A stretch of 64,000 nt of DNA from a bacterium. GTDB lineage: Bacteria; Verrucomicrobiota; Kiritimatiellia; RFP12; UBA1067. A program made the translations under genes and the position numbers. The notes beneath the pieces were generated by a model. It saw only the letters and a program-made list of their open reading frames with translations, did no database searches and was not told the DNA's origin. Location of the stretch: the NCBI GenBank assembly GCA_037133395.1, contig JBAXOG010000002.1, positions 26,180 to 90,179 of the forward strand. Reading direction: 5' to 3'. The stretch's first letter is position 1. Each line of letters begins with the position of its first letter. Positions 23,530 to 43,549 of this stretch are shown here, one piece after another.

Positions 23530-23552
23530 GCAAAGGTATACCTGTAACTTCT

Positions 23553-23581: not shown

Positions 23582-23645
23582 CAGCAAGTCCGGGTCAGCG
23601 GTACAATCAAGACATTTCTGCCGATAATTCGCTTTTCACATTGCA

Positions 23646-23710: not shown

Positions 23711-23720
23711 GGATATTGCC

Positions 23721-25034: not shown

Positions 25035-25095
25035 CACCCTTCTCAAAGCCACCTTCTCGTTCTTCGGCAGATGCCAATGCACTTCCCCCGCCCTC

Positions 25096-25308: not shown

Positions 25309-25315
25309 GTCTAGA

Positions 25316-26473: not shown

Positions 26474-26623
26474 GGCTTATTCCTCTTTCGTATAACGACC
26501 TAAACTTGATGTTTCTGATAACTGTACTTAAACTTTTGTTTCGAGTCCAGACAAGAGGTTGAAAATTGGGGACGACATTGATATAGAATCATAATCCTGC
26601 CGGTAACTTCAAAAGAATTTCAT

Positions 26624-26883
26624 TATTGCGTTATTGCTCGAAGCGAATACGCTTGTTCCTTCAGCGTTAAGCGTTTCACGCATTCCCGCATTCGCGCATT
26701 CCCGCATTCGCGCATTCGAGCATTCCCGCAAATCCACGTCATCCGCACCTAAAAACAAAACGACACGGGTTGCACGTGCATGTTCCTGTCTGTGCACAAC
26801 GGCAGACAGAAATGTCTGCCACACCTTATGTTGGCATCGCCGAGCACTGGAAAATTACCACGTTATTTCATGTGTCCAATGTC
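26624..26883 (+). repeat. Composite repeat unit, copy B
   Basis: tattgc x2; gaagcgaatacgcttgt; cattc(c/g)cg x6 at 26681-26728; hairpin at 26801-26820; near-identical to 25151-25308. Confidence 0.92.
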
Positions 26884-27084
26884 AAGTGCGCCTCCTTTGT
26901 CTTCTGCTATTTCGGGAACCACTCCAACAGTTTATTAACTACCCGATCATGACCCTTCCGGTTCTCTATGAGAACCTTGTTTGGAGTGTTACCTTATTTT
27001 AAGTTTTTGAAGCGATCATTATTTGGTAGTTAGCACACGCAACTCCGAAGAACGGGTCACGAACCGCCCCCGAAGCCTTTTGCA

Positions 27085-28176: not shown

Positions 28177-28197
28177 ACAATACAAAAACTTAATCTT

Positions 28198-28815
28198 ATG
28201 ATCACGCTTCTTATTGTTGACGATCACGCACTTGTCCGAGCTGGACTAAAGGCCTTCTTGCGTTACACACCCGATATGAAGGTGACGCTCGAAGCCGACT
28301 CCGGACTCAAGGCACTTGAACTCTATACAGCTCATAAACCCGATATTGTTCTGCTCGATATCAGAATGAAGGAACCCGACGGCATCGATACCCTTCGGCT
28401 GATTCTCAAGGAAGATCCAGAAGCCAAGGTTATTATGCTGACCACATCCAACACGGAAGAGGATATCTATCAGTCTCTTCAGTCAGGCGCCAAGGGTTAC
28501 ATTATGAAGGACGCATTATCCGATATGATCACGGATGCCATCCGCACGGTCCATGCGGGGGGAACGGTCTTCCCCGAGGATATCCTGAGTCAATTCAAGA
28601 CCCGAGCCGTACAGCACACGCTATCGCGCCGCCAACTCGATGTGCTGGGCCTGATGGCCAAGGGCTTTTCCAACCGCGAGATTGCCCGGCTCACTCAGCT
28701 CAGCGAAAGTACAGTCCTCTCCTACAACACGATCATCTTTGAGAAACTCGGCGTTTCAGGCCGCACCGAAGCTGTCGCCGCCGCCCTTCAGCGCGGCATC
28801 ATCAAGCCGACATAA
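28198..28815 (+). CDS. NarL/LuxR-family response regulator
   Basis: LLIVDDH, LLDIRM, GAKGYIMKD, LSRRQLDVL..GFSNREIA HTH. Confidence 0.95.
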   Translation: MITLLIVDDHALVRAGLKAFLRYTPDMKVTLEADSGLKALELYTAHKPDIVLLDIRMKEPDGIDTLRLILKEDPEAKVIMLTTSNTEEDIYQSLQSGAKGYIMKDALSDMITDAIRTVHAGGTVFPEDILSQFKTRAVQHTLSRRQLDVLGLMAKGFSNREIARLTQLSESTVLSYNTIIFEKLGVSGRTEAVAAALQRGIIKPT

Positions 28816-28825
28816 GAATATTCCA

Positions 28826-28990
28826 CTACCTTCGCATGGTCATGGAGAAGACATACTGGTCGTAGCGATAGACGCCCCGGACAAATTCAATCGGTTGCGA
28901 GGAGCTGCGCTGATAGGTCAGGCGCTCAATGATCAGGACGGTCTCATCAACAGGGACATTCAGCATCTTCGCCTCATCGGCTGTTGCCTT
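28826..28990 (-). pseudogene. Orphan 3' fragment (54 codons + stop) of a GntR/UTRA regulator
   Basis: Aligns without gaps to 41105-41269: 22 mismatches in 165 nt, only 2 amino-acid changes. Confidence 0.92.
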
Positions 28991-30359
28991 CTGGCTGGAT
29001 CATCACGCCTTGTTCCTTGGCGAGGCTGATGGTAATCTTTCCATCCTTCACCTCGACCTCGCTGAGTTTCTTCAAGCCTTCTGGACAGATCTCCGAGACG
29101 ACCGCTTTTTTTACGTTTTCCCATCCGGGAGGAAGCGTCCAGGTCTTGGATTCATACCCCTTGAAACTGTAGGCGACGAGCGTCTTCTCGCACCAGAGCG
29201 CCGGGTAGCACAGGTCATCGCCAGCACGGAGAGGCTGCGAACCCTTCAGCGCGGTTGTATTATTGTCATAATACCAGGGCACCACTCTGTTGCAGAACTG
29301 GGAGACCAGTCCGGGAAGTTTTACGGGATCTTTAACAATCTCCGGCTCGGCGCGCATCGGCGTCCCGCAGTAGAGGCTGGGCGGGATACCCTCCGCTGGC
29401 GCATGATAATCCCACGCCATCGGCTGTAACCCAACAAAAGAATCCACGCGCAGAAACGTACTACCCTCGCTTGTCACGTCAATTCCGTGATCTTTAAAGT
29501 AGCGGTAAATTTTCCGCTGGGCTTCGACCTCCTTCTCCACAGGGATCTTCAGATAGGGGCTGATACTTTTGTTGGCCTTGTCAAGTGTATTGGAGGGATC
29601 TGGAGCGACGCAATGGGGACGCGGCGAGAGTGTGTGGAAAGCGTCGATATGGATGGTTCCTGCCTTCTGGATCGGAAGCATGGCCAGAAGCCCATTGATT
29701 CGCTTTTGAGCCAACCCTGCATCCCACTCCTTTGCATAGCTGATGTAATAGGACTGCGTATCGATACGCGGGGCTTGACCCTTCGGACCCTGGACTTCGC
29801 CCTTGATGAGTACGCCGTTGCTGTCCTTGGCGATAATGTCGTTCGTGAGGTAACTCTCCCACAACGGGCTGTCCGCATACGCGTCGAACATGTTGATGTG
29901 CAGGCTCACGGTCGTGTGATATTTAAACCCTTCGGCCATCAGCCATTTCAGGCTATCAACCGCCGTGGCATCCTGCGGCCTTTTCAATCTCGGATTGACC
30001 ACCGACCAATCCGGGTATTTTGAGTCGTGCCCGTTGTGCTGCCAGCCGACCAGATAGACGATCTTGGGAATTCCGAGGGTGATGGTGTCCAGCCGCTTGA
30101 TAACCTCCAGTGCCTGTTCGACTGTCAGAAAAACTTTACACCCCTCGTTGGCCTGCTTTTCCGCGAGAAATATCTTCATCACGAGGGTCTGGTGATAGGG
30201 CTGTACCCAAGGCCGTTCAGGCTGTCTGGTTTTAGTCCAGTCATAATACTCGCCGGAAAAATCAGCCTCCTTTTGTTCCGGCAGGGTGGCCCGTCCGAAG
30301 GCCACCATGATTACACTCGATACCATAGCAATGATTGCAGACCCAGTTTTTCTGTTCAT
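28974..30359 (-). CDS. Endo-alpha-N-acetylgalactosaminidase-like (GH101-related) glycoside hydrolase
   Basis: Signal peptide; KIVYLVGWQHNGHDSKYP, VSLHINMFDAY, TIHIDAF, GIDVTSE. Confidence 0.65.
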   Translation of the reverse strand: MNRKTGSAIIAMVSSVIMVAFGRATLPEQKEADFSGEYYDWTKTRQPERPWVQPYHQTLVMKIFLAEKQANEGCKVFLTVEQALEVIKRLDTITLGIPKIVYLVGWQHNGHDSKYPDWSVVNPRLKRPQDATAVDSLKWLMAEGFKYHTTVSLHINMFDAYADSPLWESYLTNDIIAKDSNGVLIKGEVQGPKGQAPRIDTQSYYISYAKEWDAGLAQKRINGLLAMLPIQKAGTIHIDAFHTLSPRPHCVAPDPSNTLDKANKSISPYLKIPVEKEVEAQRKIYRYFKDHGIDVTSEGSTFLRVDSFVGLQPMAWDYHAPAEGIPPSLYCGTPMRAEPEIVKDPVKLPGLVSQFCNRVVPWYYDNNTTALKGSQPLRAGDDLCYPALWCEKTLVAYSFKGYESKTWTLPPGWENVKKAVVSEICPEGLKKLSEVEVKDGKITISLAKEQGVMIQPEGNSR

Positions 30360-30442
30360 TTGTTTTTTCTCACTTTTAGTGCGTTCCCTGATTCATACGT
30401 AACGTTTCAATCGATCTCTTACTGAAACGAAAACATGTTGCG

Positions 30443-33400
30443 CTACTTTGACAATCTAATCAGGAGGACCTCATGGGGCTTCACCTCACGGACATATTCC
30501 CTGTCAAAGCGTCCCAGATCCTTGCGCAACCACAGGTCTCGGACATTCCGTTGTCCCTCGATTCCCAGGCAGCTCCAGCGCATCGTGATTGTTTGAGGTT
30601 TGTCGCCCCGATTAAACAAGCCTGCACCAACATCGCCATTCGCCAGGGGCTTCTGCCAAACCTCCATGTCGCCGAACTTATAGGCGCGCCATGCCGGGAT
30701 TCCCAACGGATCCTGGTCTAGGGCAATCGCCTCGGGATTCGTCAGCGTCTCGCGGGTCACCTGATCCATTTCAGCCAGATCGCAGCCGGCAATCAGTGGT
30801 GCACTCAGCAGACACCACAGTGACATCTGCGAGCGATACTCCGTGTCTGTACAACCCGGTCCTTTGGGATCCCCTTTTGCCTTCTTTCCACTTTGCCAAC
30901 TGTTTCCATACAGCCCTGCGAACAGCTGGTCCAAGTCGTTCCAACCGCCGGGACCAGCAAACGCTCCCAGGCACTCATTCTGGTCGACGATGCGCACAAT
31001 TCCGTTGCCAAAATTGCTGTCCACGTCCGTATCCCAGCGATCGATCAAATCGAAGGTCGTCCGCCACATGTGGCCGCCTGACTTCCTGGCCCATGACCAT
31101 GGACGACACTTGCCCCATTCACAGATGTTATAGAGCGTTGGACGATACACAGCCAGAGCCTTGGAAAACTCCGAGTAGAGCGAATGCGCCGGGGCGGGAT
31201 TTGGGTCGTCGTTCCAGTCCACCTTGAGATAATCCACTCCCCATTCCGCAAAGCGTTTCGCGTCCTGCTCATAGTGCCCGTAGCTGCCAGGGAAGCGCCC
31301 GCAGGTGAGCGATTTGGCATCGGTATACATACCGAATTTCAAGCCTTTGTAATGCACATAATCGGCCAGCGCTTTCATACCTTGCGGAAACTTGTTCGGG
31401 TCCGGCTGGAGATTGCCGTCCTTATCCCGGCTGCGCATCGCCCACCAATCGTCGATGATGACGTATTGGTAACCCGCGTCTTTCATTCCAGAGTTCACCA
31501 TGGCGTCGGCGTTACGCCTGACGACGGCCTCATTCACTCCAGTGCTAAAACCGCACCAGCTGTTCCAGCCCATGGGGGGTGTCTTTGCCAGACCCTGGTT
31601 GTCGCCGAAGCGCTTCGGATCAGGGAGTGGAATGGCAACGGACCACAACTGCGCGCCAGCCCAAGCCGCCAGTGTATTGCCATCGCCGGTCACGAGGAGC
31701 TTCATTTCACGAACGCCTGCCAATGGCACGCGGCAGCCGATGGGGCGATGAGGATTCAAGCCCGCGGCCCCGTGATGAATGTTGCCAGTGTCATAAGCGA
31801 GTTGCCCATCGGTGAAGACTTGGAATCGGACGGCGCCCGCCCGGCCGTGAAGGTCAAGTCCCACCCACGCTTGGAACCACTGGTACCGATTCTCCAGCGC
31901 GTAAGTCAGTTCCGTATCCTGGGTGACTCCTAGACCGCTGGCGTACTCCATGCCGCCGATGTTGATCGTCTTGCCCGACAGATTGATGCTGCCTTTCGCC
32001 ACGACCGGCTTGAGTTCTGACAACCAGATCGAATCCCGCGTGTCCACAATAGGTTTATCTCCCAGCAACTTCGCCAGCGTAGGTTCGACTGCCTGCACCC
32101 AAGCTTCGGCGCCGGCGGCGTTTGGATGAATCAAATCCGGAATCAGATCGGCGTTGATCGTGCCCTCCGAACGGAGGAACACACGCCCCACGTCGAGCCA
32201 GAAGACATGTTTGTTGTCGGCGAGTTGGGCGGTCTGTTCGCCGCCTCGGCGCAGATATTCCCGCGCTTTGTCCGACCGGTTGTAGATGCGTCCCTGATGT
32301 CCGGCATTGACATGATCGTTGCGACCGCCCGCAGGGAACGTGCGCAGAATGAGAATCTTGCTGGCCGGATGACGCTGGCGAATCAGGTCCACGATGGCCT
32401 TGGTGCCGGTGAAGACCTGTTCACCGGTATGGATGGTCTTGTAATACTGGTCGTCGGTGTTGTTAGTGCCGATCAGCAACATGAACACCTTGGGCGACCG
32501 TTTGAAATCCAGTTCACCATTGAGCAGATTCCAGAGAATATTCTCCGTCCGGAAGCCACTGTAGCCGAGGTTTAGTGCATGACGCGGCGCAAAATGTCTG
32601 TCCCACACTGTGCGGAGCGATGCCAACTCACCACCCATTTCCCCCAGCGAATGCGTAATCGAATCGCCAACCAGCACGAGGTCATAGTCGCCGGACTTCA
32701 CTGCAGCAACCTTCTGCTCATGCCTGGCGACCGCGCCCGGATCCGTGTTTCTTGTCGGAAAATCGGAGTCCCCCGGTTGCTGGCCCGGTTGGGCGGCAAC
32801 CGTCAGTGCGGTCGCCGGTTTCGGGAGCACGACTTCGATGGTTTCACCTGGGCTGATGAGCTTATCCTGCAGGATTTTATCCTGCTGTAAAATCTGGACG
32901 TGGAGTTTCTGCCCGGCCCGCGTCACCACGATGTCGACGTCATTGCCGAACGCTTGGATATGGCGGAGCGCCATCGAGGGCCAACTGTCCGGGAGCCGGG
33001 GCGTGCAGCGGAAACGATCAAGTCCAGTGGGCAGGATACCGAACATCCCCTCGGTGAAAATCCGGCAATAGAGGCCGCTCTCGGAGGCGAGGTGCCCCTG
33101 CCCGCCTTCAGGATAAGCCTCAACAGCATAAGGGACATGCTCGCCCAGCAGGCGCCGGCGGGAGTATTGGCCGAGGAAGGCGAGCGCCTTTGCCGTCTCA
33201 CCCGCCTGGAACACAGCCCGCAGGGCGTAGAGCGTCGAGCGATCCCAGAAGACCTTGTCGCCCGCCTGCGACGCCAAGCCGTCGGCAGTCCACATCCTGG
33301 GAGAGAACAGGGCGTCGATGGTGCCCTGCTTGCGCTCGAAAAGCCCCATCGAGAGCGGCATGCAGATCCAGGAACGCAGGACCGCGTTGCCGTCGTAGTA

Positions 33401-34828
33401 CCGATAGGTGTCGAACCCTCCGACTGTGGCGCCGAAATGCGCCTCGATGGCTTTCTCCAGAGCCTGCGCGCGTTGGCCGTATTCAGCCGCCTCCGTGTCT
33501 TTGCCCAACGCACGGCCGAGATCAGCAGCCGACCGGAGTCCGCCGTAGGCCAGGCTGGCCGTGGTCAGGTTGGCCGTGCCTGCGGGCAGGCGACCTTCGA
33601 GTTCATCCGTGTCGGAGGCAATCACACCATCGGTCGTTTGTTTCCGTTTACAATATTCCAACGACCACGCGATGCCTTTCCAAAGTTCCTTGGCAACCGC
33701 CTCATCGCCCAAGGCCAGGCAGAAGCGTGAAGCCCCGTAGGCATACATGGCGGCATCGCCCCGGTCGAACGGTCCCCAGATGTCGGTCCCCTCCGCAACG
33801 ATTGAACACGGGATACGCTGGTAGTCGGACTTCATGAACGACAGGTATTGGCGGTAGGCATTGAGCGATGCCGCGTTGCCGCCCGCCTCACCCAGAAACG
33901 GGAAGAACGGCCCGGCGTATTCCACGTTGTCGTTGCACCACGTCGCGGCGTAATAGCGCAGATTGCCGGGCGCCAGCATCATGCCCCCTCGGGTGTCGTT
34001 GATCGCTTCGGCCACCCGCCACTTGGCAAAGGCGAAGGCGCGGTTCAGCAGGAGGTCCGGTGTTTCAAGACACAAGGTTTCATTGAGCCGGGCAATGAAG
34101 GCGCGGCGCTGCTTTTCCTCAGACGCGCCGTCGAGCGCCTCGGGCGGCGCATCGGCGAGACGCGCGGAAAAAAGAACGGAGAACGACAGGACGTTGCCGG
34201 CGGCAAGGCTTGTGCTGACGGGCGCGTCGGTAGAGACCGACAGGACATTCGTCCCGTAAGGGCCTGTTTTCTCGAACGCCAACGCGAGCGGCGCGACACC
34301 CACCACAACCGCCTTTTCACCCGTGTTCTTCAGCGTCCACCGGTCAACTGCTGCATACTTCTCAAACGCGGGGAAGGTCACGCGCGTAATTGCCAGAGGC
34401 CCTGCCTGTCCGACAAACGTCAGCGTCCCGTCGAGCCGGACTTCCGAAATCCTGAAAGGTCCAGCAGGCCGTGCGTCAACCGTGATGTGCGGCTCAGCCT
34501 CGGTCGCAAAGTGCCGGATCAGGCTGCCGTGTGTGTCGTTGGGGAAAATCCGCAAGGACGGCCAGACCACATCCCGCTCAAGTTTCAGCACGCCGGCCGC
34601 ATCGAGCGAATACCAGACCTTCTGCCCGACCCTGCGTCCGCCCTGCTCGATAAAATCCTTGTGCGGGAGTTTCGTACCCTCGACCTTCCAGACCGTGGCG
34701 ACACCTTCGCCAAAGGTCCATCGGTCAGCCCGAGACAGAGAATTGCTTTCGACAGCACAGAGTACGCCAGCCGTCAAAACGCAGGCGCCCATGATGGTGG
34801 TCATGCGAGCTTTGAGTGAATGCTTCAT
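30443..34828 (-). CDS. Multi-catalytic fusion: six-hairpin glycosidase + SGNH/GDSL esterase + NPCBM + GH27 alpha-galactosidase
   Basis: YYAATWCND/DTDELEGR (six-hairpin); VGDSITH, GTNN, DLIHP (SGNH); FQAWVGLD..VRFQV (NPCBM); TPPMGWNSW, IIDDWW, DYLKVDW, WNDLDQL (GH27). Confidence 0.85.
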   Translation of the reverse strand: MKHSLKARMTTIMGACVLTAGVLCAVESNSLSRADRWTFGEGVATVWKVEGTKLPHKDFIEQGGRRVGQKVWYSLDAAGVLKLERDVVWPSLRIFPNDTHGSLIRHFATEAEPHITVDARPAGPFRISEVRLDGTLTFVGQAGPLAITRVTFPAFEKYAAVDRWTLKNTGEKAVVVGVAPLALAFEKTGPYGTNVLSVSTDAPVSTSLAAGNVLSFSVLFSARLADAPPEALDGASEEKQRRAFIARLNETLCLETPDLLLNRAFAFAKWRVAEAINDTRGGMMLAPGNLRYYAATWCNDNVEYAGPFFPFLGEAGGNAASLNAYRQYLSFMKSDYQRIPCSIVAEGTDIWGPFDRGDAAMYAYGASRFCLALGDEAVAKELWKGIAWSLEYCKRKQTTDGVIASDTDELEGRLPAGTANLTTASLAYGGLRSAADLGRALGKDTEAAEYGQRAQALEKAIEAHFGATVGGFDTYRYYDGNAVLRSWICMPLSMGLFERKQGTIDALFSPRMWTADGLASQAGDKVFWDRSTLYALRAVFQAGETAKALAFLGQYSRRRLLGEHVPYAVEAYPEGGQGHLASESGLYCRIFTEGMFGILPTGLDRFRCTPRLPDSWPSMALRHIQAFGNDVDIVVTRAGQKLHVQILQQDKILQDKLISPGETIEVVLPKPATALTVAAQPGQQPGDSDFPTRNTDPGAVARHEQKVAAVKSGDYDLVLVGDSITHSLGEMGGELASLRTVWDRHFAPRHALNLGYSGFRTENILWNLLNGELDFKRSPKVFMLLIGTNNTDDQYYKTIHTGEQVFTGTKAIVDLIRQRHPASKILILRTFPAGGRNDHVNAGHQGRIYNRSDKAREYLRRGGEQTAQLADNKHVFWLDVGRVFLRSEGTINADLIPDLIHPNAAGAEAWVQAVEPTLAKLLGDKPIVDTRDSIWLSELKPVVAKGSINLSGKTINIGGMEYASGLGVTQDTELTYALENRYQWFQAWVGLDLHGRAGAVRFQVFTDGQLAYDTGNIHHGAAGLNPHRPIGCRVPLAGVREMKLLVTGDGNTLAAWAGAQLWSVAIPLPDPKRFGDNQGLAKTPPMGWNSWCGFSTGVNEAVVRRNADAMVNSGMKDAGYQYVIIDDWWAMRSRDKDGNLQPDPNKFPQGMKALADYVHYKGLKFGMYTDAKSLTCGRFPGSYGHYEQDAKRFAEWGVDYLKVDWNDDPNPAPAHSLYSEFSKALAVYRPTLYNICEWGKCRPWSWARKSGGHMWRTTFDLIDRWDTDVDSNFGNGIVRIVDQNECLGAFAGPGGWNDLDQLFAGLYGNSWQSGKKAKGDPKGPGCTDTEYRSQMSLWCLLSAPLIAGCDLAEMDQVTRETLTNPEAIALDQDPLGIPAWRAYKFGDMEVWQKPLANGDVGAGLFNRGDKPQTITMRWSCLGIEGQRNVRDLWLRKDLGRFDREYVREVKPHEVLLIRLSK

Positions 34829-34843
34829 AAAATTAAATTAAGA

Positions 34844-34871
34844 GTCCGCGCCCCTCCCTGGAGGCGCGGAC
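34844..34871 (-). terminator. Intergenic hairpin (terminator-like or REP-derived) between the surface protein and the GH fusion
   Basis: gtccgcgcc/ggcgcggac 9-bp stem followed on the minus strand by a T-rich tract. Confidence 0.5.
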
Positions 34872-34884
34872 CTTGCGTGTGACG

Positions 34885-37800
34885 TCAGAAGAACTTGATC
34901 ATCGTGCCCTGCGCCTTACGCAGCACAAGCGCATTGGGCTGCAATTCAAGATAATATTTGCCCGGCGCGTCCCCGAGGCGCGTCCACCCGGCCAGGTCCG
35001 ACGCTGTCGCCGAACAGGAGGCGAACGTGCACAGGGTGATGATCTTCGGCTGTACCGCGCCCGGCTGGAACGTGAGTTGAACCGTGGCCGCCGTCGGCAG
35101 CGACAGCGCGCCCGTGACAGCGACCAGGCTTTGCGTGACGGCGTTGCCGGTGCAGGCCAGCGTCGCTCCTGGCGCAAGCGTGAGCGCGGCAACCTTCAGT
35201 GTGCCCGGCGCCGACGGTACGCCACCGCAGATGACACCCTGTGCAGCGACCGACACAAGGCCCGTGACAACGCCCGTGCCGCCCAGCATCCCCGCGCTAA
35301 CGGTCGTATTGTTGGTGTAGAGGTTGACCCCGTTCAGGGCCATGAACCCCGTGCCGGTCTTGATAAGTTCTCTGGAACCGCTGAAAAAACCGCTGACCAG
35401 CAGGTCGATGCCGTTGGTCGCCCCAGGAGCCACGTTGAAAGTCACACCGCCTGCTTTCAAGAGAGCGACATACGGCGCGGAGATCACCGACGTGTTTACC
35501 CCTCCTGTGACCGCGACATTCTGGGCAAAACTCCAACTGCCGTTGACAGCATCGAGATAACCCGAGGCGCTGAGCGTCCCGCCGGCCAAGGTCAAGGGGC
35601 CGCATAAACCTGAGCAGACGCTGGCGGTGATGGCCATCACGCCGCCGGCATTGATCGTCACCGCCACATTGTTGCCTCCCATCAGGCTGTTGATGCGGTT
35701 CTCCTCGACACGTCCGCCGTTGTTGACCACCAGAGACGAACCGCTGGCAAGCCTGCTGGCGTAATTGCCAGTCGCAGGATTCAAGACGCCACCATTGACG
35801 ACGTACGTCCCCGTGTACGTATGCGTCCCGTTCAAGATGAGCGTTCCGGGACCGGTCTTGGTGATCGAGCCACCAGCCCCGCTGACGCCGTAGCTTGCCG
35901 TCTGGCTGCCGTAGAGGTTGTAGACCAGTGCGGCGTTGTTGGTGATGCCGCTGGCGAGGGAGCCGTCATGGCCTGTGGTCCCGTCTCCCAACTGCACGGT
36001 CCCGGTGGAGATTGTCATGCCGCCGCTGTGCGTGTTCGCGCCGGTGAGCGTCAGTTTGCCCGCGCCTGTCTTGTTGAGTGGCGAGCTTCCTGCGACCACC
36101 GCGCTGATGGTCACGCTCTTGTCCGCACCCAGCGCACCGACATCGATGGTGGCGCTGCCGCTGTAGACGCCAAGTGTGAGGACATTGGTCGAAAAACCAT
36201 TGTTATCCAGTGTCCAGCCCGCCGCCGTGCCAACGGCATCTGTGTCATTGAAGCGCAAATGCCCGACGGTCCTGGGCGAATCCAGATGGACACTCGTGTC
36301 CGTCGTGATATCCAGCGTCGAGAAATCGTTGGTGCTGCCGATCCCATACCCGATGGCATTGTTCTGCCAATTAGCGGCCGTGCTCCAGTTGCCGCTTGCG
36401 AGTGAGGTCCAAACAGCAGCCGCTACGATGTCCGCTTTCAGGCCGGCAGGCTGCGTCAGGGAATAGTTGGGGTTGTCGAGGGTTGAGGTGGAGGTCACGT
36501 CCTTGCCGGTGCCGGGCATTGCGTCAGCGAATTGAGCGGACAGGGTCAGCGTCACCGTGTCACCGCTGAGCACTCCCGAAGAGAGCGTGCCGGTAAGAGG
36601 GGCAATCGCGGTGCCGTCATAGAATTTGTTACTCGTCGCAGCTCCGTTGATGGTCAGCGCAATCCGGACTACCGTTTGGGTGCTCAAGGCAGCCGAAACG
36701 CTGTCTGCAAAATTGTTGTCGCCGGCATACACCGCGACGATGTTGGCGTGGCTGCCGGCCGTGAGTGCGTTCAGCGCCGGCGTGATGGTGCAGATGCCGT
36801 TCTCACCGGTGACCAGTGTATGGCTGCCCAGAACCGTGCCTGCAGCGCCGCCGTCTTTCAAGAAGAAGACAAGACCCGTGGGCACCGTGGGCGAGTTCGG
36901 CGTGACCGCGATGTCAAAGGAGAGGGAGTCGCCATAGGTCGTGTTCTCCGCAGTGCCGAGATGACGCGTCACCGCAACTGTGGAGGGAATCGCCGCAGCC
37001 GCGACGATCAGGTTGACCTGACCGCCGCTGACCTCGATTCTTGCCGTCCCTCCACTGACCACGCCCGAATTGTTAAGGAGGAGATTCGTGGTGGCGCCAC
37101 GCATCGGCGTGCCCGCGATGCTGCCGCTGGTCTGCGAGATGAGCCGATACGTCCCGGCGCCCAGCCGCGCGATGCTCAGGATGTTCACGGTGATGACGCC
37201 ATTCAGCGTCAAGGAACCCTGCGAAACCGTCAGCGCCGGGCTGGCCGTGTCACCGGAATACGTCGCCGGGGTGAAATCCAGAGTGACCGCCTGCGAGCCG
37301 AGACTGACGGTCGTGCCGCCTTTGAGCACGGCAGGGGCTGCGGCGGTGCCGCTGGCGCGCAGGATGGTGTTGGTGCTCAGAGTATAGGTGCTGAAAGCCG
37401 AGACATCATTGGTCGCCCCTGCGGCAATGGCAATGCGGGCCGAGTTGCTGATCGAACCGCTGCTGGCGATGGTGAGCGTGCCATTGCTGATGACCGTGGC
37501 CCCGTTATAGGTGCTGGTGCCTGAGAGCGTCAGCGTGCCTCCGCCGAGCTTGGTCAGCCCACCGTCGGTGCCGGGGCCCGCGTGTTCCAACACCTGGCTG
37601 ATCCCAATGTTTTTTCCGTTGGAGTCGAGGACCGCCCCGTTGGTGCTGACGTAGGCGTGGGTCAGTCTGGACATGAAGTTCGCCTGGGTATTACCAGCTT
37701 TAAGGGTACCGCCGTTAAACGTCAAATTATTTGTACCGTAAGTATTATTTGTCACGATCCCACCGACGGTCAAGGTTCCTCCACTGCCGAGGTTATAGGC

Positions 37801-38445
37801 AAACGTTTTCGTTGCTGATGCACTGTGCGTACTGCCGATAACAAGATTCCCGGTGATAGATACCGTGCTCACGCCGCCTGTCTGGTTGAACGTGGCATCA
37901 GCAACGCCGGTATTAGCTTGTGAGAAAAACCCGACCTGAAGCTTGCCCGTAATCGTTACCGTGCCACCGCTCAGGTTCCATGCATCAGATTGACCGCTGC
38001 CCGTGTAATTGCAGCCCAAGGTGGCATCCGAGCCGACACTGACCGCGCCGCCGCTTTGGTTGAACGTCCCACCCCGGCTTTCGCCGACGTTAAAGACGGT
38101 GTTCAACGTCAGCGAACCGCCGGTCATATTCAAAGTCCCCGGCAGGGTGTTGTTGCCGCCAATGCTGGAATGGCCGATGCCGCAGGCATTGATCGTATAG
38201 GAGTCGCCTGCCTGCAGCGTGACGGTGTAGCCACGGGCTACGTAAGCGTAGTCGTTGGGCGTGCTGGGAGGCGTCGTGCCTCCATTGGCAGTCCAGGTCG
38301 TAGCTTTATTCCAGAGGTCGTTGGCATTCGAATAGGGATAAGCCGCGCCTACCGCCTCCGCATGCCACATCGCTGTCGCCAGACCTACGAGCAGTGTCAA
38401 AGTCCTGACGCTATGTTTAATTGCGTTTTGCCTGTTTCTGTTCAT
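34885..38445 (-). CDS. Large secreted beta-helix/autotransporter-repeat protein with Ig-like and YDG-like domains; no beta-barrel; ends KAQGTMIKFF
   Basis: Signal peptide; GLTKLGGGTLTLSGTSTYNGATVISNGTL, LNKTGAGKLTLTGANTHSGG, KTGPGTLIL, KTGTGFMAL repeats; NKFYDG YDG-like segment. Confidence 0.82.
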   Translation of the reverse strand: MNRNRQNAIKHSVRTLTLLVGLATAMWHAEAVGAAYPYSNANDLWNKATTWTANGGTTPPSTPNDYAYVARGYTVTLQAGDSYTINACGIGHSSIGGNNTLPGTLNMTGGSLTLNTVFNVGESRGGTFNQSGGAVSVGSDATLGCNYTGSGQSDAWNLSGGTVTITGKLQVGFFSQANTGVADATFNQTGGVSTVSITGNLVIGSTHSASATKTFAYNLGSGGTLTVGGIVTNNTYGTNNLTFNGGTLKAGNTQANFMSRLTHAYVSTNGAVLDSNGKNIGISQVLEHAGPGTDGGLTKLGGGTLTLSGTSTYNGATVISNGTLTIASSGSISNSARIAIAAGATNDVSAFSTYTLSTNTILRASGTAAAPAVLKGGTTVSLGSQAVTLDFTPATYSGDTASPALTVSQGSLTLNGVITVNILSIARLGAGTYRLISQTSGSIAGTPMRGATTNLLLNNSGVVSGGTARIEVSGGQVNLIVAAAAIPSTVAVTRHLGTAENTTYGDSLSFDIAVTPNSPTVPTGLVFFLKDGGAAGTVLGSHTLVTGENGICTITPALNALTAGSHANIVAVYAGDNNFADSVSAALSTQTVVRIALTINGAATSNKFYDGTAIAPLTGTLSSGVLSGDTVTLTLSAQFADAMPGTGKDVTSTSTLDNPNYSLTQPAGLKADIVAAAVWTSLASGNWSTAANWQNNAIGYGIGSTNDFSTLDITTDTSVHLDSPRTVGHLRFNDTDAVGTAAGWTLDNNGFSTNVLTLGVYSGSATIDVGALGADKSVTISAVVAGSSPLNKTGAGKLTLTGANTHSGGMTISTGTVQLGDGTTGHDGSLASGITNNAALVYNLYGSQTASYGVSGAGGSITKTGPGTLILNGTHTYTGTYVVNGGVLNPATGNYASRLASGSSLVVNNGGRVEENRINSLMGGNNVAVTINAGGVMAITASVCSGLCGPLTLAGGTLSASGYLDAVNGSWSFAQNVAVTGGVNTSVISAPYVALLKAGGVTFNVAPGATNGIDLLVSGFFSGSRELIKTGTGFMALNGVNLYTNNTTVSAGMLGGTGVVTGLVSVAAQGVICGGVPSAPGTLKVAALTLAPGATLACTGNAVTQSLVAVTGALSLPTAATVQLTFQPGAVQPKIITLCTFASCSATASDLAGWTRLGDAPGKYYLELQPNALVLRKAQGTMIKFF

Positions 38446-38460
38446 TCCTGATTCCTTCTT

Positions 38461-39567
38461 TTACCCGGTTATCCGGGTTTTTACCTGAGATTTCCGTAAC
38501 GTACTCACGTTCATCGCACACGTGCTTTCCCTGACAACAGGGATCGGCTCATAAATCGTATCCGACACCTCTTTTTTGTCCATCAACTCAAAGATCATCC
38601 GCGCCGCAGTCGCGCCGATTTCCGAAAGCGGCTGCCCCAGCGTAGTCAAAGGCGGGTTGCACATCTCCGACATGTTGGCGTTGTCATACCCGACGACAGA
38701 AAAATCCTTGGGCACGCGCACCCCTGCAGCCGCCAACTGGTTCATGACGCCGATTGCGACATAGTCACAGAAACACGTCGCCGCCGTGAACCCGCCGTGA
38801 CGCAGTTGGTCAACCGCAGGCTTGACGAGGCGGGTGTAGTCGAGTCCCACCATGGTTTGGGCATCATAATCGATCACCTGTGGCATCAATCCCGCTTCGC
38901 ACATGGCCCGCTCATAGCCCTGTGCGCGCTGCAAAGCATCGGCGTGCGTACCGGGCAATTCGCGGTCCAGGTACGCGCTGTGCGTCACGTGGGCAATCCG
39001 CGTATGCCCCAACTCCAGCAGATGTTGTGTGGCCAGATATCCCGCCCTGTCTTCATCAGTCATGACCACCGGCACGTCCGGATAAATGCGGCGATAGAGT
39101 TGCACGACGGGAACACCCTTTTTGCGGAGATCCGCCACGCGCTTGTGATTGGCTCCGTCCGGCGCTTCCGGCGCGCCCGCGATGATGAGTCCGTCCACCC
39201 GCCGATCCAGCGCGAAATCAAGATGCCGGGACTGGTCATCAGCCCAGCTCCCGTCATAATAGGTCAGCAGCGAATAGTCGCGGTCGCGCAATACCGTCTC
39301 GATGCCCTTGATCGTGTCCAGCGCGAAGACGAAATACGACTCGCGTCCTAGCAGGGCGATGAGATGGGACTTCTTCATCGACAGGCTGCGACCCAAAGGA
39401 TTCGGGCTGTATCCTAGTTTCGCCGCGATTTTCAGTACGCGCTTGCGCGTCTCTTCGCTCACGCCGATCTTGCCCTTACGCCCAGAGAACGCTACAGAAA
39501 CAGCAGCATTGGAAACACCCGCCTGCCGCGCGATTTCAGCCATATCCACTTCTTTTCCAAATTTCAT
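38461..39567 (-). CDS. LacI-family transcriptional regulator
   Basis: MAEIARQAGVSNAAVS HTH; LGYSPN..RSL; DFSVVGYDN; PPLTTLGQP. Confidence 0.95.
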   Translation of the reverse strand: MKFGKEVDMAEIARQAGVSNAAVSVAFSGRKGKIGVSEETRKRVLKIAAKLGYSPNPLGRSLSMKKSHLIALLGRESYFVFALDTIKGIETVLRDRDYSLLTYYDGSWADDQSRHLDFALDRRVDGLIIAGAPEAPDGANHKRVADLRKKGVPVVQLYRRIYPDVPVVMTDEDRAGYLATQHLLELGHTRIAHVTHSAYLDRELPGTHADALQRAQGYERAMCEAGLMPQVIDYDAQTMVGLDYTRLVKPAVDQLRHGGFTAATCFCDYVAIGVMNQLAAAGVRVPKDFSVVGYDNANMSEMCNPPLTTLGQPLSEIGATAARMIFELMDKKEVSDTIYEPIPVVRESTCAMNVSTLRKSQVKTRITG

Positions 39568-39580
39568 AATGGCACCAAAT

Positions 39581-39630
39581 TATATTAATCGGTTAATATA
39601 GTCAAACCAAAATATTAACCGATTAATATT
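39581..39630. promoter_or_regulatory. Pair of LacI-type operators in inverted orientation, 30 bp apart
   Basis: tatattaatcggttaatata at 39581-39600 and aatattaaccgattaatatt at 39611-39630; central CG; between the divergent lacI-family and MFS genes. Confidence 0.85.
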
Positions 39631-39710
39631 TTTTTTACTCTTCACGGTTTGACCTTGTCAAATCCCGGCGGTGTCGTCATACTTACCGAACAACTTCCGA
39701 GGGCTCTGAA

Positions 39711-40970
39711 ATGGATCCTGACACTCCCAACAGCGAACCCGCGCGCAGTCTTCGCCTCTCCATTGTCGAGGGCGCGTTCTATTCAGCGCACGTCGCCATC
39801 GTCAACGGCGCGCTGCTGACTGGGTATGCCCTCTTGCTGGGGGCGAATGACTTTCAGCTCGGCCTGCTGACCGGCATGGGGACGCTGGCCACGCTCGGCA
39901 GCGTTGTGGGTGCTCGGCAACTTGGCCGCCGGGGACGCCGCAAGCCGATGATGCTGGAGGCGCTGACGCTCAGCCGCGCGATTTGGCTCACACTCTGCCT
40001 GCTGCCGTTCCTTCCCCTACCCGCAGACTCGCGCATCGCCCTGCTTCTCGCCGTCGTTCTGGTCGCCGCCACAGCGGCGCAATATGCGGACACGGGCTGG
40101 ATGTCCTGGATGACAGACCTCGTCCCGCCCCCGATCCGGGGACGTTACTTCAGTTGGCGCAGTTCCATTCTCGGGGCCGTCGGCATGCTGTCCGGCTGCG
40201 GCGCGGGGTGGGCATACGACCGGCTGAAACTGACAGCCGGTGCGGAGCGCGCCTTTCTCCCCATTTTGCTCTTCTCTTTAACCTGTGCCGCACTTTCGAC
40301 CGTCATCTTCGCCCGCCTGTGGGAGCCGCCGCTGCACGGGGAGCGCCCCTTGACGCTGCGTCACGCGTTGCGCCTGCCGCTGCTTCACGGGCCGTTCAGA
40401 CAACTGCTGATTGTCTGCGGACTCTGGGCGCTGGCCACAGGAGTTGCCGCGCCTTTCTTCCAGCCGCAGATGATTAAAAACCTTCACATGTCTTATGCCG
40501 CCATCGGCCTGTATGCCGCCGTAGCTGGAGTCGTAACCCTCGCGGCACAGCCGCTCTGGGGTCACCTCATTGACCGCATCGGCAACCGTCCGGTTCTGAT
40601 GATGAACATCATCGGCGTGACGGGCTTGCCCTTTCTTTGGCTACTAGCGCGGCCGGACTTCCTTCTGCCAATCTGGATCGATGCCATTCTCACCGGGATC
40701 TTCTGGCCGGGCATTCTCCTGACCACCTTCAACTTGGTCATGCACACCGCACCGCAAGAAAACCGATCCGCCTATCTCGCCGCCTACCGGCTGGTGACGG
40801 GGCTTATCGCCTTTGCCGGAGCGCTGCTCGGCGGCGGAATCGCCTACCTCCTGCGCGACTTCACCCTACACGTCGCCGGCCTGTGCCTAGTGAACTTCCA
40901 CATCCTCTTCATACTGTCCTGCATCGGACGCCTCACGATCTGGCCGTTTGTGCGGAAATTACGAGAATAA
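39711..40970 (+). CDS. MFS transporter
   Basis: About 12 TM helices; WGHLIDRIGNRPVL MFS loop motif; WMSWMTDLVP..RGRYF. Confidence 0.9.
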   Translation: MDPDTPNSEPARSLRLSIVEGAFYSAHVAIVNGALLTGYALLLGANDFQLGLLTGMGTLATLGSVVGARQLGRRGRRKPMMLEALTLSRAIWLTLCLLPFLPLPADSRIALLLAVVLVAATAAQYADTGWMSWMTDLVPPPIRGRYFSWRSSILGAVGMLSGCGAGWAYDRLKLTAGAERAFLPILLFSLTCAALSTVIFARLWEPPLHGERPLTLRHALRLPLLHGPFRQLLIVCGLWALATGVAAPFFQPQMIKNLHMSYAAIGLYAAVAGVVTLAAQPLWGHLIDRIGNRPVLMMNIIGVTGLPFLWLLARPDFLLPIWIDAILTGIFWPGILLTTFNLVMHTAPQENRSAYLAAYRLVTGLIAFAGALLGGGIAYLLRDFTLHVAGLCLVNFHILFILSCIGRLTIWPFVRKLRE

Positions 40971-40987
40971 GGGACAGACATGGTATG

Positions 40988-41034
40988 CATAAGGTGTGGC
41001 AGTCATTCCTGTCTGCCCTTGATTGCACAGACAG
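40988..41034 (-). repeat. Inverted copy of the GGCAGACA hairpin repeat
   Basis: Reverse complement reads ctgtctgtgcaatcaagggcagacaggaatgactgccacaccttatg. Confidence 0.88.
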
Positions 41035-41104
41035 AGATCGCCGTATTCAGCAGAGCCCGTGCTTGAAACGAGAGCGAAGCGTCAATGCCTGCGCCACCAT
41101 GCAC

Positions 41105-41881
41105 CTATCGGCGCATGGTCATGGAGAAGACATACTGGTCGTAGCGATAGACACCGCGGACAAACTCAATCGGCTGTGCGGAACTACGCTGATAGGTCAA
41201 GCGTTCAATAATCAAGACTGTCTCATCGACGGGGATGTTCAGCATCTTCGCCTCATCAGCAGTTGCCTTGCCTGCACGAATGGACTCTACACCGTGGCTG
41301 ATGTGAATGCCATACTTGTTCTCAAGAATCTGATAGAGCGAATGTGAAAAGTCCTCTTCCTCCGAAATACCCAGGCTTTCCGGCAATTCCGAAGTCAGAT
41401 ACACCAGCGGAAAACACTGGTTATGTCCGCGCAAACGTCTCAGGAGCAATGTGCGCTCACCTTTCTTCAACCCAAGCTGTTTGGCAAGCATCGAGGCTGG
41501 CTGATGATATTTCACATCGATGATTTCCGTAAGCGCCGTCTTTCCCTTGATTTGCAACTCTTCCGTGAAACTCTTCATACGGCCAAGATCTTCGGTCAGA
41601 GGCGTGCCAATCACGCGGGTCCCCAGCGCAGCACGACGTTCAATGATGCCTTTGTTGATCAGACTGTCATACGCTTTGCGCACCGTCGCCCGGCTCAAGC
41701 CAAAGCGTTCGACCAATTCGAGCTCGCCCGGCAAGAGACTGCCAATCGTACACCGCTGACGAATGCGATCATGCAATGCATTTTCGAGTTGCTTCCACAA
41801 GGGGGCTTCCGACAGAATTGAAAAGTCCAATGCTTCGCCAGGTTTGAAAAGAACGACTGGTTTTTCTCGTGTCCGTGCCAT
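41105..41881 (-). CDS. GntR-family (HutC/UTRA) transcriptional regulator
   Basis: LPGELELVERFGLSRATVRKA wHTH; UTRA HSLYQILE..YGI, IEFVRGVYRYD. Confidence 0.95.
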   Translation of the reverse strand: MARTREKPVVLFKPGEALDFSILSEAPLWKQLENALHDRIRQRCTIGSLLPGELELVERFGLSRATVRKAYDSLINKGIIERRAALGTRVIGTPLTEDLGRMKSFTEELQIKGKTALTEIIDVKYHQPASMLAKQLGLKKGERTLLLRRLRGHNQCFPLVYLTSELPESLGISEEEDFSHSLYQILENKYGIHISHGVESIRAGKATADEAKMLNIPVDETVLIIERLTYQRSSAQPIEFVRGVYRYDQYVFSMTMRR

Positions 41882-41890
41882 ACTGTTTTC

Positions 41891-43363
41891 CTACTCTTTC
41901 CGGCGCACTGGCGCCTTACGATACGATGATTCCTTGGGCCAAGTCTTGGGATCGGCATACACGTTTTCTGTATCCTTCAATTCCTTCTGCAATTTGGCAA
42001 GTTCCTTCTTCAACTCCGCAACAATGGACTGCGTTTCCGGCTTGTCGTAGATATTGATAAGTTCCGCCGGATCTTTCACCAAGTCATAACATTCCCATTG
42101 ATCCTTGCCATCAAAGTAAATAAGCTTATATGTGGCGGTACGCACGCCATAGTGACGAGCTGTATTATGGTCGCCCGGCGAGTGGTAGTAACGGTAGTAC
42201 ATGCTTGTACGCCACTGAGCAGGCGTTGTCCCGTCGAACAAGGGCGTGAGGCTGACGCCCTGCATCTCTTCAGGAACTTTTTCCCCGGCCAGCATCAAGA
42301 ACGTCGGGGCAAAATCGCAATTCACGCAGATTGCATCTTGAACCAATCCGGGCCTAATCCCTTTACCCCAGCGTACCAGGAAGGGCATTTTGATGCTCTC
42401 TTCATACATAAACCGCTTGTCATACATTCCATGGTCGCCGAGGAAGAACCCTTGGTCGCTGGTATAAATAACCACGGTATCATCAAGGATGCCTTCCTGC
42501 TCAAGAGCCTTTAGGACTTCACCCATGCTCTCATCAATGCTTTCGATGCAGGCTAGGTAGTCCTGCATGTAACGCTGATAACACCAACGTGTGCGCGCAT
42601 CACCTGTCAAACCCTCGGGGTACGGATCCTTTACATCACGTTTGTGCAGGTCACGTGCAATGCTCTGCTTCTGTTCACGGATGGCATCGCTTCGCCCGGT
42701 ATAGGTGTCAAAGAGCGTACCGGGTTCGGGTATCGTCTTGGCGCGCCATTTCTTGGCGAGCCGCTCATTCGGATCCCAGGGACGATGTGGCGCCTTATGA
42801 TGCATCATCATGAAGAAGGGCTTGTCTTTCGGACGGGCCTTGATGTCAGCGATCACTAACCTCGTCACCACCTCCGTCGCATACTCCCCTTGATATTTTT
42901 TAGAGCCGTCCTTTGTGTAAAGGACCGGATCATGGTATTCTCCCTGTCCCGGGAAGACCTCCCAGTGGTCAAAGCCCTGCGGATCAGTCCCCAGATGCCA
43001 CTTGCCGATCATCGACGTATAATAGCCAGCCTTCTGCATCCGATGCGCAACTGTAACCTTGTTCGTGTCGATCGAATTGAAAACCGGCACCCCATTAATA
43101 TGACTGTATTGCCCAGTCAAGATAGTCGCACGACTCGGTGTGCAGATCGAGTTGGCTGCAAAGACATGATTAAATTTGATGCCCTCTTTTGCCAGCCGGT
43201 CAAGATTGGGTGTCTGGATCAGTTTACCACTGTAAGCACTGATGGCATGAGCGGCATGGTCATCCGACATCACATATAAAATATTTGGTCGTTGCGGAGC
43301 TGCCATAGCGATCACCGAAACGCAACTCCATGCAACCGACCATAATCCGCGATACAACTCCAT
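41891..43363 (-). CDS. Cys-type sulfatase (DUF4976-type C-terminus)
   Basis: RPNILYVMSDDH, SICTPSRATILTG, GKWHLG, YTSDQG, DKRFMYEES. Confidence 0.95.
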   Translation of the reverse strand: MELYRGLWSVAWSCVSVIAMAAPQRPNILYVMSDDHAAHAISAYSGKLIQTPNLDRLAKEGIKFNHVFAANSICTPSRATILTGQYSHINGVPVFNSIDTNKVTVAHRMQKAGYYTSMIGKWHLGTDPQGFDHWEVFPGQGEYHDPVLYTKDGSKKYQGEYATEVVTRLVIADIKARPKDKPFFMMMHHKAPHRPWDPNERLAKKWRAKTIPEPGTLFDTYTGRSDAIREQKQSIARDLHKRDVKDPYPEGLTGDARTRWCYQRYMQDYLACIESIDESMGEVLKALEQEGILDDTVVIYTSDQGFFLGDHGMYDKRFMYEESIKMPFLVRWGKGIRPGLVQDAICVNCDFAPTFLMLAGEKVPEEMQGVSLTPLFDGTTPAQWRTSMYYRYYHSPGDHNTARHYGVRTATYKLIYFDGKDQWECYDLVKDPAELINIYDKPETQSIVAELKKELAKLQKELKDTENVYADPKTWPKESSYRKAPVRRKE

Positions 43364-43549
43364 ATTATAATCCTTTTTTTGACCCAAAGAATGACCAAAT
43401 GGTATCACATCTCATGAATAAAAGTGAATGTCCATTTTTAATCACGGCTTTTTCTTTTAGCTTCGACTTAAAATCCCGGCACAAATCGAATATTGCAAGA
43501 GCATACAGCCCCTGTTTTTAACTTTTAATTTAAGAAATTACCCCTTCGT

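Follow-up and report, generated by a model that had tools for sequence, protein, structure and literature searches.

How a set of glycan-degradation genes can come to occupy the 3′ end of a regulatory gene, leaving that gene whole and a second copy of its last codons stranded at the far border, is the question raised by a locus in an uncultured bacterium of the Verrucomicrobiota (Kiritimatiellia, UBA1067; GenBank assembly GCA_037133395.1, contig JBAXOG010000002.1, positions 26,180 to 90,179 of the forward strand; this stretch of 64,000 nucleotides (nt) is referred to as the window). Five genes lie here in a 12.1-kb interval between two copies of the end of a GntR-type regulator gene, termed tail A (left copy) and tail B (right copy, the end of the intact gene). 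An initial annotation, made from the letters alone, had proposed that the interval was captured in this strain, without an integrase, for example by homology-facilitated illegitimate recombination (HFIR), from a related strain. Comparison of the window with 116 further loci (labels L### and P### denote relatives' loci and alleles) makes it probable that there was one illegitimate, HFIR-like capture, after which the cassette spread by homologous recombination through the GntR tail. The initial annotation is right in substance and wrong on the timing and on the ancestral neighbour of the regulator; the event is old and shared.

A regulator 3′ end repeated at both borders of a foreign cargo

The two tails are gap-free direct repeats of 165 nt that differ at 22 sites (86.7% identity), with homology that stops sharply at either edge of both copies (Table 1). 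On the minus strand, both correspond to the last 54 codons and the stop codon of a regulator with a GntR-type helix-turn-helix (HTH) and a UTRA domain, and the residue changes between them are limited to V/I at residue 216 and S/A at residue 235. By Nei-Gojobori counts, 20 of the differences are synonymous and 2 are non-synonymous (dN/dS 0.017), and the probability under neutrality of two or fewer non-synonymous changes among 22 is 2e-11. A core of 41 nt (28833-28873 and 41112-41152) is identical between the copies. Tail B ends a complete gene located directly after a sulfatase gene, and the encoded protein carries a PF00392 winged HTH domain (residues 30-90) and a PF07702 UTRA domain (residues 113-250), as is characteristic of its subfamily. 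Tail A is preceded by in-frame stop codons and has no start codon, HTH or N-terminal part; what is left in it is a 46-amino acid (aa) open reading frame (ORF; 28826-28966), which is called by gene callers in all assemblies. The target gene is hence intact while its 3′ end is repeated at both island borders, the arrangement typified by e14 in icd, and the left copy is, to judge from the pattern of substitutions, a displaced GntR 3′ end that evolved under purifying selection.

Codon 209 (28976-28978 and 41255-41257) specifies Asp in both window tails and in all copies of tail A that adjoin the response regulator (RR) described below, and Glu in the other alleles. The Asp common to both window tails points to gene conversion between the two copies over a short tract close to the 5′ edge of the repeat.

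The DNA between the tails (28991-41104) has a guanine-plus-cytosine (GC) content of 59.2%, compared with 50.7-51.4% in the conserved flanks, and its tetranucleotide profile correlates with that of the rest of the window with r=0.73, a value below those of all 12-kb control chunks (0.77 at the lowest). In its composition the cargo is foreign. Its five genes are separated by spacers under 150 nt, none of them encodes an integrase, transposase or recombinase according to Pfam, and no coding space is left; the annotated genes around the interval, at 18-52 kb of the window, likewise lack a recombinase or excisionase. In these respects (the extent and the few residue changes of the repeats, the divergence of the tail under selection as part of a functional ortholog, and the GC-richer, integrase-free character of the intervening DNA) the initial annotation was borne out by realignment and recalculation. 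An island of the tRNA type was also considered and was rejected, since no tRNA, tmRNA or Rfam family occurs within the window.

An illegitimate join at the distal border

The distal border is illuminated by a related module that lacks a GntR gene (L104, composed of MFS, LacI, PATR, a six-hairpin protein and GH101), which is 84-88% identical to the window at the DNA level, with homology that ends at 40966 and 28987, and which encodes a LacI protein 94.5% identical in aa to that of the window. Homologues of the GH101-like enzyme are conserved as far as '...QGVMIQPEG', after which a few variable residues precede the end of the protein. The window enzyme instead reads 'QPEG-NSR' and then stops, 17 nt within tail A; its end codons are taken from tail A, out of frame, and its last 5 codons have been replaced. 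The native GH101 end (..CCGGAAGGTGACC..) and GntR codon 205 (..GGCAAGGCAAC..) have the 4-5 nt AAGG(C) in common, within the 3-10 nt of microhomology that characterize HFIR, and the joined product reads ..CCAGAAGGCAACAGCC... Taken together, the three sequences indicate that the distal junction is a product of illegitimate recombination at microhomology, not an att site. An identical GH101/tail junction is carried by L114 and L115.

Repeats of this type break short-read assembly graphs at their identical core, and the cargo between them may be mis-binned or dropped. An assembly artefact would be conceivable, in which the GntR alleles of two strains living together had been fused into a chimera at the shared 41-nt core. 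De Bruijn unitigs are in fact interrupted precisely at this core, and several GntR alleles are found side by side in the same samples. However, the same layout was recovered by exact-protein lookups from assemblies of different studies, and the tail/GH101 junction is spanned by at least six independent assemblies (GCA_005795885.1, ERZ4201038, ERZ4223250, JGI 3300025616, ERZ27271935 and JGI 3300004805); in the first of these, a metagenome-assembled genome at NCBI, a single contig of 18.8 kb crosses both junctions. Logan unitigs from freshwater and lake metagenomes break only within the 41-nt core and show an even depth of 11-16x across the region, and diverged variants (93-98% identity) retain the same tail/GH101 join. 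A chimera is thus extremely improbable, and the misassembly against which the initial annotation had cautioned can be discounted.

One junction on different flanks

The same junction recurs in relatives with quite different surroundings. In comparison with L110 and L112, the window shows 100% identity over a stretch of as much as 2.1 kb that starts at 28878 and runs rightwards (tail positions 1-113 and GH101), and positions 1-113 of tail A are identical in L110-L112. Leftwards of this point, 5 of 52 nt differ in tail positions 114-165, all of them synonymous, and in the flank beyond the tail the RR gene is 92.9-94.1% and the histidine kinase (HK) gene 92% identical. L111 has the same flank allele, and its 882-nt block of identity with the window ends at the same point.

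A second setting was found through the 90% cluster of the GH101 protein, which is represented by a 1425-aa fusion protein on JGI contigs of 55-64 kb. The order on these contigs is MFS, LacI, PATR/YDG, a 686-aa protein, the 1425-aa GH101 fusion and a 46-aa ORF; the last of these (L114-L116) is the displaced GntR tail with the identical join, and it is followed by a helicase, GH2 and a sulfatase. The contig of 63.9 kb also holds an intact GntR gene (P0046 allele) ~45 kb upstream, and what adjoins the L114 cassette proximally is other cargo and no GntR tail. The 421 nt that follow the L114 tail are 97% identical to the DNA after the intact GntR gene in L103, so that L103 would represent a bona fide empty site for the helicase flank, with the tail marking the original gene end. 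The resident 3′ fragment has here been retained beside its original neighbour, as is expected of HFIR; the empty site is seen solely in this helicase context. Because one and the same join stands on at least two different flanks (RR-HK and helicase), the unique illegitimate join must, by this comparison, have arisen once and then moved.

Breakpoints within the tails

The proximal border tells a similar story. L099 carries the cargo directly downstream of its own GntR gene, as the initial annotation had anticipated for a related strain, and differs from the window by one mismatch in 40788-41176; from 41177 rightwards mismatches are dense (divergence of about 13-20%), and through the rest of GntR and the sulfatase gene identity is 78-88%. 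Tail B is accordingly mosaic, with positions 94-161 identical to the L099 (P0044-type) allele and positions 1-93 as diverged as the rest of the GntR gene. The L099 tail equals tail A over positions 56-95 and tail B over positions 96-161 exactly, which matches what would be expected for the reciprocal products of one crossover near position 95. The boundary between the history of the cassette and that of the flank therefore falls inside both tails, at different positions, and the breakpoints vary between lineages, from about 93-96 (L099) to 113/114 (L110-112) and about 14/15 (L114), with no fixed core. A call of the native tail by three-way distances was dropped, as the allele matrix shows both tails to be mosaic.

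These observations bear directly on the scenario as it was first put forward, namely a single recent HFIR event in this strain, in which the 5′ portion of a resident GntR gene beside the RR gene gave way to donor DNA with its own GntR allele and the cargo, leaving tail A all native and tail B all donor. Its HFIR component is consistent with the microhomology junction and with the empty site given by L103 and L114; a cargo-bearing GntR allele does exist in L099, and the ranking of allele similarity differs between the tails; for tail A, and likewise for the 5′ part of the gene, L009 comes closest. The event is, however, neither recent nor private to this strain. An identical GH101/codon-205 junction is present in L110-L112, whose RR-HK flank is 7% diverged, and in L114-L116 on the helicase flank, and so predates the configuration of this genome; positions 1-113 of tail A are identical across lineages despite the 7%-diverged flanks, so that tail A is not uniformly native; and the 5′ part of GntR and the sulfatase gene are only 78-88% identical to the sole known cargo-bearing allele, so that no donor tract is visible there. 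The scenario in its literal form is accordingly unlikely. Given the identical junction on diverged and on different flanks, the cassette most likely entered this genome through homologous recombination via the tail and not in a new illegitimate event.

The varying breakpoints are equally relevant to an alternative in which the island is a site-specific element, of the kind represented by e14 or phage 21 in icd, whose attP carried a substitute GntR 3′ end and whose integrase has been lost or acts in trans. The architecture is indeed like that of icd-e14-icdC, including a displaced C-terminal fragment with mostly synonymous differences, and the 41-nt identical core could act as an att core. Yet displaced tails with synonymous-only divergence are not in themselves a sign of an integrase-borne att site, and neither the 12.1 kb nor the adjoining 18-52 kb of the window encodes an integrase or excisionase. 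In place of an att arm, the distal boundary has a join at microhomology by which a cargo gene is cut short, the lineage breakpoints (at about 14/15, 93-96 and 113/114) have no single core, and the proximal side of the L114 cassette adjoins other cargo, not a GntR tail. Site-specific integration is for these reasons quite improbable; variable crossover points together with the lack of a recombinase favour recombination of the RecA type.

A probable two-step history

The preferred account, an early capture followed by homologous spread, can be set out as follows. A LacI-regulated glycan module, also present elsewhere without GntR, would have been joined once, at AAGG(C), to GntR codon 205. This illegitimate join would clip the last GH101-like codons and strand the resident 54-codon tail beyond the insert, with an intact GntR allele and its own tail staying on the proximal side, an outcome that fits HFIR. 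The cassette would then travel with its stranded tail. Its two arms, the tail on the distal side and GntR/sulfatase on the proximal side, would be homologous to the single GntR gene of any relative, and RecA-type recombination would place the cassette at the same site, by a double crossover from linear DNA or a single crossover from a circle. Every such transfer would regenerate an intact regulator and a hybrid displaced tail. The window genome would have acquired or exchanged its cassette in this way, so that positions 1-93 of tail B and 114-165 of tail A belong with the local flanks and positions 94-165 of tail B and 1-113 of tail A with the cassette. We infer the HFIR origin, the RecA-dependence of the spread and the direction of transfer from comparison of the present-day alleles.

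The same account would explain why the differences between the displaced tails are synonymous only, since the distal parts of these tails recently ended functional genes. An alternative reading of this bias is that the displaced tail has been kept by selection, either as a 46-aa UTRA C-terminal peptide co-translated after GH101 or as a 3′ untranslated region element. The ORF is intact in all three displaced-tail alleles, the synonymous to non-synonymous counts are 5:0 (window versus L110) and 14:3 (window versus L114), and the GH101 stop codon is followed, at a distance of 7 nt, by a GAGG motif and an ATG. Against this, the synonymous bias is accounted for by recombination with alleles that are intact and under selection, and breakpoints can be seen directly within the tails; the L114 tail also has a T255A change at a residue that is invariant in all intact alleles, which argues weakly against a function. 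Metatranscriptome coverage is too sparse to judge the transcription of tail A. Overall, a function for the displaced tail itself is very doubtful.

Several observations weigh against capture followed by homologous spread. Positions 1-55 of tail A resemble L009, not L099, and the L114 tail shares just positions 1-14 with tail A. Some of the breakpoints could reflect later gene conversion and not the crossovers of insertion, and the tails are so heavily mosaic that the order and direction of individual events cannot be reconstructed. Neither an excised circle nor a tail-to-tail deletion joint was found in the unitigs of 8 metagenome runs, although unitigs hide rare forms; the joints that were seen trace to the YhcG repeat and an RR paralogue. 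The cargo of the L099 lineage is seen from its proximal side, with the far end not recovered, and an RR gene next to an intact GntR gene was not found among relatives or metagenome unitigs. Finally, an integrase may act in trans.

If the two-step history is correct, it shows how, in nature, accessory metabolic genes can enter genomes and pass from one to another with no recombinase dedicated to the task: an illegitimate join comes first, and a fragment left over from the target gene then steers ordinary homologous recombination. More tentatively, the stranded tail might be the working part of an integrase-free, self-targeting island, serving as a portable homology arm for RecA-mediated insertion at the same GntR codon of any relative, with the regulator left whole. 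Were this to be general, repeats of gene fragments flanking the islands of uncultured aquatic bacteria would identify a class of mobile cassettes that need no recombinase.

A hot spot downstream of GntR

The sulfatase-GntR pair is conserved in all relatives at 84-89% nt identity, and so offers the one-sided anchor of HFIR. Clustering at 90% puts the GntR protein in a group of 45 sequences, and alleles that are 93-97% identical in aa occur in many freshwater metagenome contigs, always after the sulfatase gene. Downstream of GntR, at least six different contents are found among these alleles (contexts 1-6 in Table 1), close relatives thus having different content between conserved flanks, as in flexible genomic islands. 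The DNA beyond GntR is a hot spot for accessory genes in a freshwater Verrucomicrobia-like clade, and the sulfatase-GntR locus would appear to swap glycan-degradation capacity among co-existing lineages.

The initial annotation had expected GntR to lie directly next to the RR gene in relatives; the cargo-free relatives found have PTR2 or other variable genes there instead. The GntR allele closest to that of the window (P0055, 97% aa identity) is of the PTR2 type, and the DUF6905, FGGY, ADH and PTE genes of PTR2-type relatives occur at about 18-23.5 kb in the window. In L014, L017 and L018, homology jumps from the GntR stop codon to window position ~23522-23532, whereas in the window itself the stop codons of PTR2 (23529) and GntR (41105) are separated by 17.5 kb, made up of a block of 5.3 kb, tail A and the cargo. 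The block (23530-28825) is missing from relatives in which GntR adjoins PTR2, and tail A lies 10 nt from the RR stop codon. A tblastn search with GntR of the window and the 116 loci gave no further tail remnants beside PTR2 or elsewhere. The possibility allowed for at the outset, that the cargo-bearing arrangement is ancestral, would, with all cargo-free states derived by deletion, predict tail remnants or cargo scars beside PTR2 or the helicase in 'empty' genomes, and this search showed none.

Among species-representative genomes L001 is the sole match, and an exact 40-mer of the tail core has no match in that set, so that the species is not represented there; a scan of metagenome contigs with GntR gave two further relatives only. 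For HK, a search of genome contigs was empty, and the best non-self match in the protein database is 38% identical. The RR-HK flank is therefore, with no close relative of HK at hand, not traceable to an empty site. Among 5.8 billion proteins, HK has no close relative outside its own lineage; it is also short, at 354-363 aa, compared with 390-610 aa for its nearest homologues (38% identity).

Comparison with known systems

Each ingredient of the locus is already known, and the case is a clean, not an unprecedented, island capture, a variant of the 3′-end displacement represented by e14/icd and Rhs/type VI secretion system (T6SS) loci. In Escherichia coli, insertion of the cryptic prophage e14 or of phage 21 in the 3′ end of icd leaves an icdC pseudogene (Hill, Gray and Brody, 1989, PMC210168; summarized in PMC13626634). 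Like e14, the present island lies in the 3′ end of a protein gene that is kept intact by a proximal substitute tail, has a displaced C-terminal fragment at its far end with mostly synonymous tail differences, and would yield a chimeric functional gene by tail-to-tail recombination. However, e14 encodes an integrase and an excisionase and has a fixed att core, whereas the GntR island has no recombinase and variable crossovers; it also differs in the microhomology join that clips a cargo gene and in carrying metabolic cargo, not a phage.

HFIR has been invoked for the displaced C-termini and orphan 3′ fragments of effector loci of the Rhs, contact-dependent inhibition (CDI) and T6SS types (Kirchberger et al., 2017, PMC5361080, in which Jackson et al., 2009, PMC2935791, is cited). 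The GntR island shares with these loci a conserved 5′ anchor, a module joined illegitimately, a resident 3′ end that is pushed downstream and kept, the lack of an integrase, and the character of a hot spot at the population level. In Rhs, CDI and T6SS loci, though, the 3′ end that arrives is a new toxin domain without homology to the resident one, and selection favours the resulting diversification; in the GntR island, the displaced tail and its replacement are orthologues with 87% identity, the regulator protein stays as it was, and the payload consists of unrelated glycan genes amounting to 12 kb. A single displaced tail is present in the loci examined, with no array of the Rhs/CDI/T6SS kind.

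HFIR itself was defined experimentally, according to the works cited in PMC5361080 (de Vries and Wackernagel, 2002; Prudhomme et al., 2002; Meier and Wackernagel, 2003), and is also the subject of a study of E. coli conjugation (PMC3240628). As in the experimental systems, a one-sided homology anchor is combined here with short microhomology (4-5 nt); in contrast to them, HFIR is deduced from the sequence scar alone, and the later spread needs no more than ordinary, two-sided homologous recombination.

The GntR locus has in common with flexible islands its variable cargo, exchange among co-existing lineages, mosaic blocks of identity and lack of mobility genes, and is set apart from them by one homology arm being a stranded gene fragment carried with the cassette. 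In aquatic bacteria, such islands of the replacement type, and hot spots of recombination, are found between flanking genes that are conserved. What seems to distinguish the present locus is that an island without an integrase occupies the 3′ end of a gene, with its stranded tail acting as a homology arm.

Gene content and neighbourhood

Table 1. Features of the window and gene contexts downstream of GntR in relatives.
Feature	Position	Strand	Basis or loci
Tail A (left copy), codons 205-258 and stop; apparent displaced GntR 3′ end	28826..28990	-	displaced GntR 3′ end
Putative illegitimate junction at microhomology AAGG(C)	28986..28990	-	L104 vs window vs GntR alleles
GH101-related glycoside hydrolase, 461 aa, last cargo gene	28974..30359	-	Pfam PF12905
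Multidomain enzyme, 1461 aa: N-terminal six-hairpin-like region, SGNH/GDSL esterase, NPCBM, GH27 alpha-galactosidase	30443..34828	-	Pfam
PATR (autotransporter-associated beta-strand repeat)/YDG-domain surface protein, 1186 aa	34885..38445	-	PF12951, PF18657
LacI-family regulator of cargo	38461..39567	-	Pfam
Two 18-bp quasi-palindromes ATATTAAYCGRTTAATAT, 30 bp apart, in LacI/MFS divergent intergenic region	39582..39629		
MFS transporter, 419 aa, proximal cargo gene, divergent from LacI	39711..40970	+	Pfam
Hairpin-containing dispersed element, ~45 nt, at proximal cargo edge	40988..41035	-	
Tail B (right copy), 3′ 165 nt of intact GntR	41105..41269	-	repeat alignment
Intact GntR regulator gene (HutC-like), 258 aa	41105..41881	-	ORF, translation, Pfam
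Sulfatase, conserved upstream partner of GntR in all relatives, likely proximal homology anchor	41891..43408	-	Pfam, synteny
PTR2/MFS transporter, convergent GntR neighbour in one cargo-free group	22093..23529	+	
Extra block between PTR2 and tail A	23530..28825	+	Pfam, gene tables
AAA_14/DUF4143 ATPase (extra block)	23721-25034	+	Pfam
YhcG/DUF1016 nuclease (extra block)	25316-26473	-	Pfam
HK, histidine kinase (extra block)	27085-28176	+	Pfam
RR, LuxR-type response regulator (extra block)	28198-28815	+	Pfam
Context 1 after GntR: convergent PTR2/MFS, then DUF6905, FGGY, ADH, PTE			P0055, P0045, L017, L018
Context 2 after GntR: ShlB-type two-partner secretion locus			
Context 3 after GntR: MFS and very large proteins			
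Context 4 after GntR: DUF5703/GH95-like gene, AraC, SSF			L001
Context 5 after GntR: UvrD-like helicase flank			L103
Context 6 after GntR: present cargo			L099-L102

The GH101-like enzyme has distant PDB matches to endo-alpha-N-acetylgalactosaminidases, and its homologues are common in Verrucomicrobiota, Planctomycetota and Bacteroidota; the 1461-aa enzyme matches alpha-galactosidases (4nzj and 1uas, E<=1e-88) and SGNH proteins of the PAF-AH type (E 1e-20). The two quasi-palindromes in the LacI/MFS spacer are candidate LacI operators; the motif gives 4 strand-matches compared with 0 expected. From its gene content, the cargo would support the uptake and cleavage of glycans that contain alpha-Gal or alpha-GalNAc and are possibly acetylated; most likely it serves this purpose under the control of LacI, and there is no sign of its regulation by GntR. 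The designation of the cargo as resembling a polysaccharide utilization locus (PUL) in the initial annotation applies loosely. As in the PULs of Bacteroidota, a regulator, a transporter, a surface protein and several glycoside hydrolases are co-localized. However, an adjacent pair of a SusC-like TonB-dependent transporter and a SusD-like lipoprotein is absent from the five genes according to Pfam, so that this is not a PUL of the Bacteroidota type, and the locus further differs in its MFS transporter, LacI-type regulator and Verrucomicrobia-like host.

The cargo domains have been shuffled between lineages (30443-34828 in the window, 7992-9998 in L104 and 7918-14278 in L114). The six-hairpin part is a separate protein of 668-686 aa in L104 and L114 and is fused to SGNH-NPCBM-GH27 in the window, while in L114 the GH101 domain and a GDSL esterase are fused into the 1425-aa protein. 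A second GC-rich (60%) and compositionally atypical stretch at 7000-11000 of the window contains a paralogue of the PATR protein, ~68% identical in nt to the region at 36.0-36.4 kb, and was possibly acquired as well.

The hairpin element (..CCTGTCTGTGCAA..GGCAGACAGAAATGTCTGCCACACCTTATG) is present in four copies, three on the plus strand (23540-23582, 25205-25255 and 26780-26830) and the one at the cargo edge on the minus strand. All four lie at module borders, namely after the PTR2 stop codon, on either side of YhcG and in the spacer between the MFS and GntR stop codons, and among the loci compared the element occurs only in the window lineage and in the cargo-bearing L099 lineage. It may be akin to repetitive extragenic palindromic elements or be a substrate for rearrangements. 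A 77-nt segment of the same MFS-GntR spacer (41022-41098) reaches ~20x depth in one lake metatranscriptome, with different sequence on both sides, and may represent either a dispersed repeat or a small RNA transcribed elsewhere.

Within the extra block, the YhcG gene is flanked by direct repeats of ~220 nt (25088-25308 and 26665-26883, 80-97% identical) that contain 8-nt tandem units (CATTCNCG). In metagenome unitigs, depth over 25088-26883 is 2-3x that of the adjoining DNA and variant letters abound, and one run contains joints that skip 1565-1575 nt between the repeats, the shorter side of which is just 21-25 nt; the region looks like a multi-copy, possibly mobile, cassette. The end of the RR gene (28521-28808, ~290 nt) likewise has a copy elsewhere, about 90-97% identical, with genome-like depth and different flanks. 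This copy is adjoined by a copy of the hairpin element and probably belongs to a paralogous LuxR-type regulator, which accounts for a peculiar joint between 'opposite strands' (28808->41035) in two of the runs.

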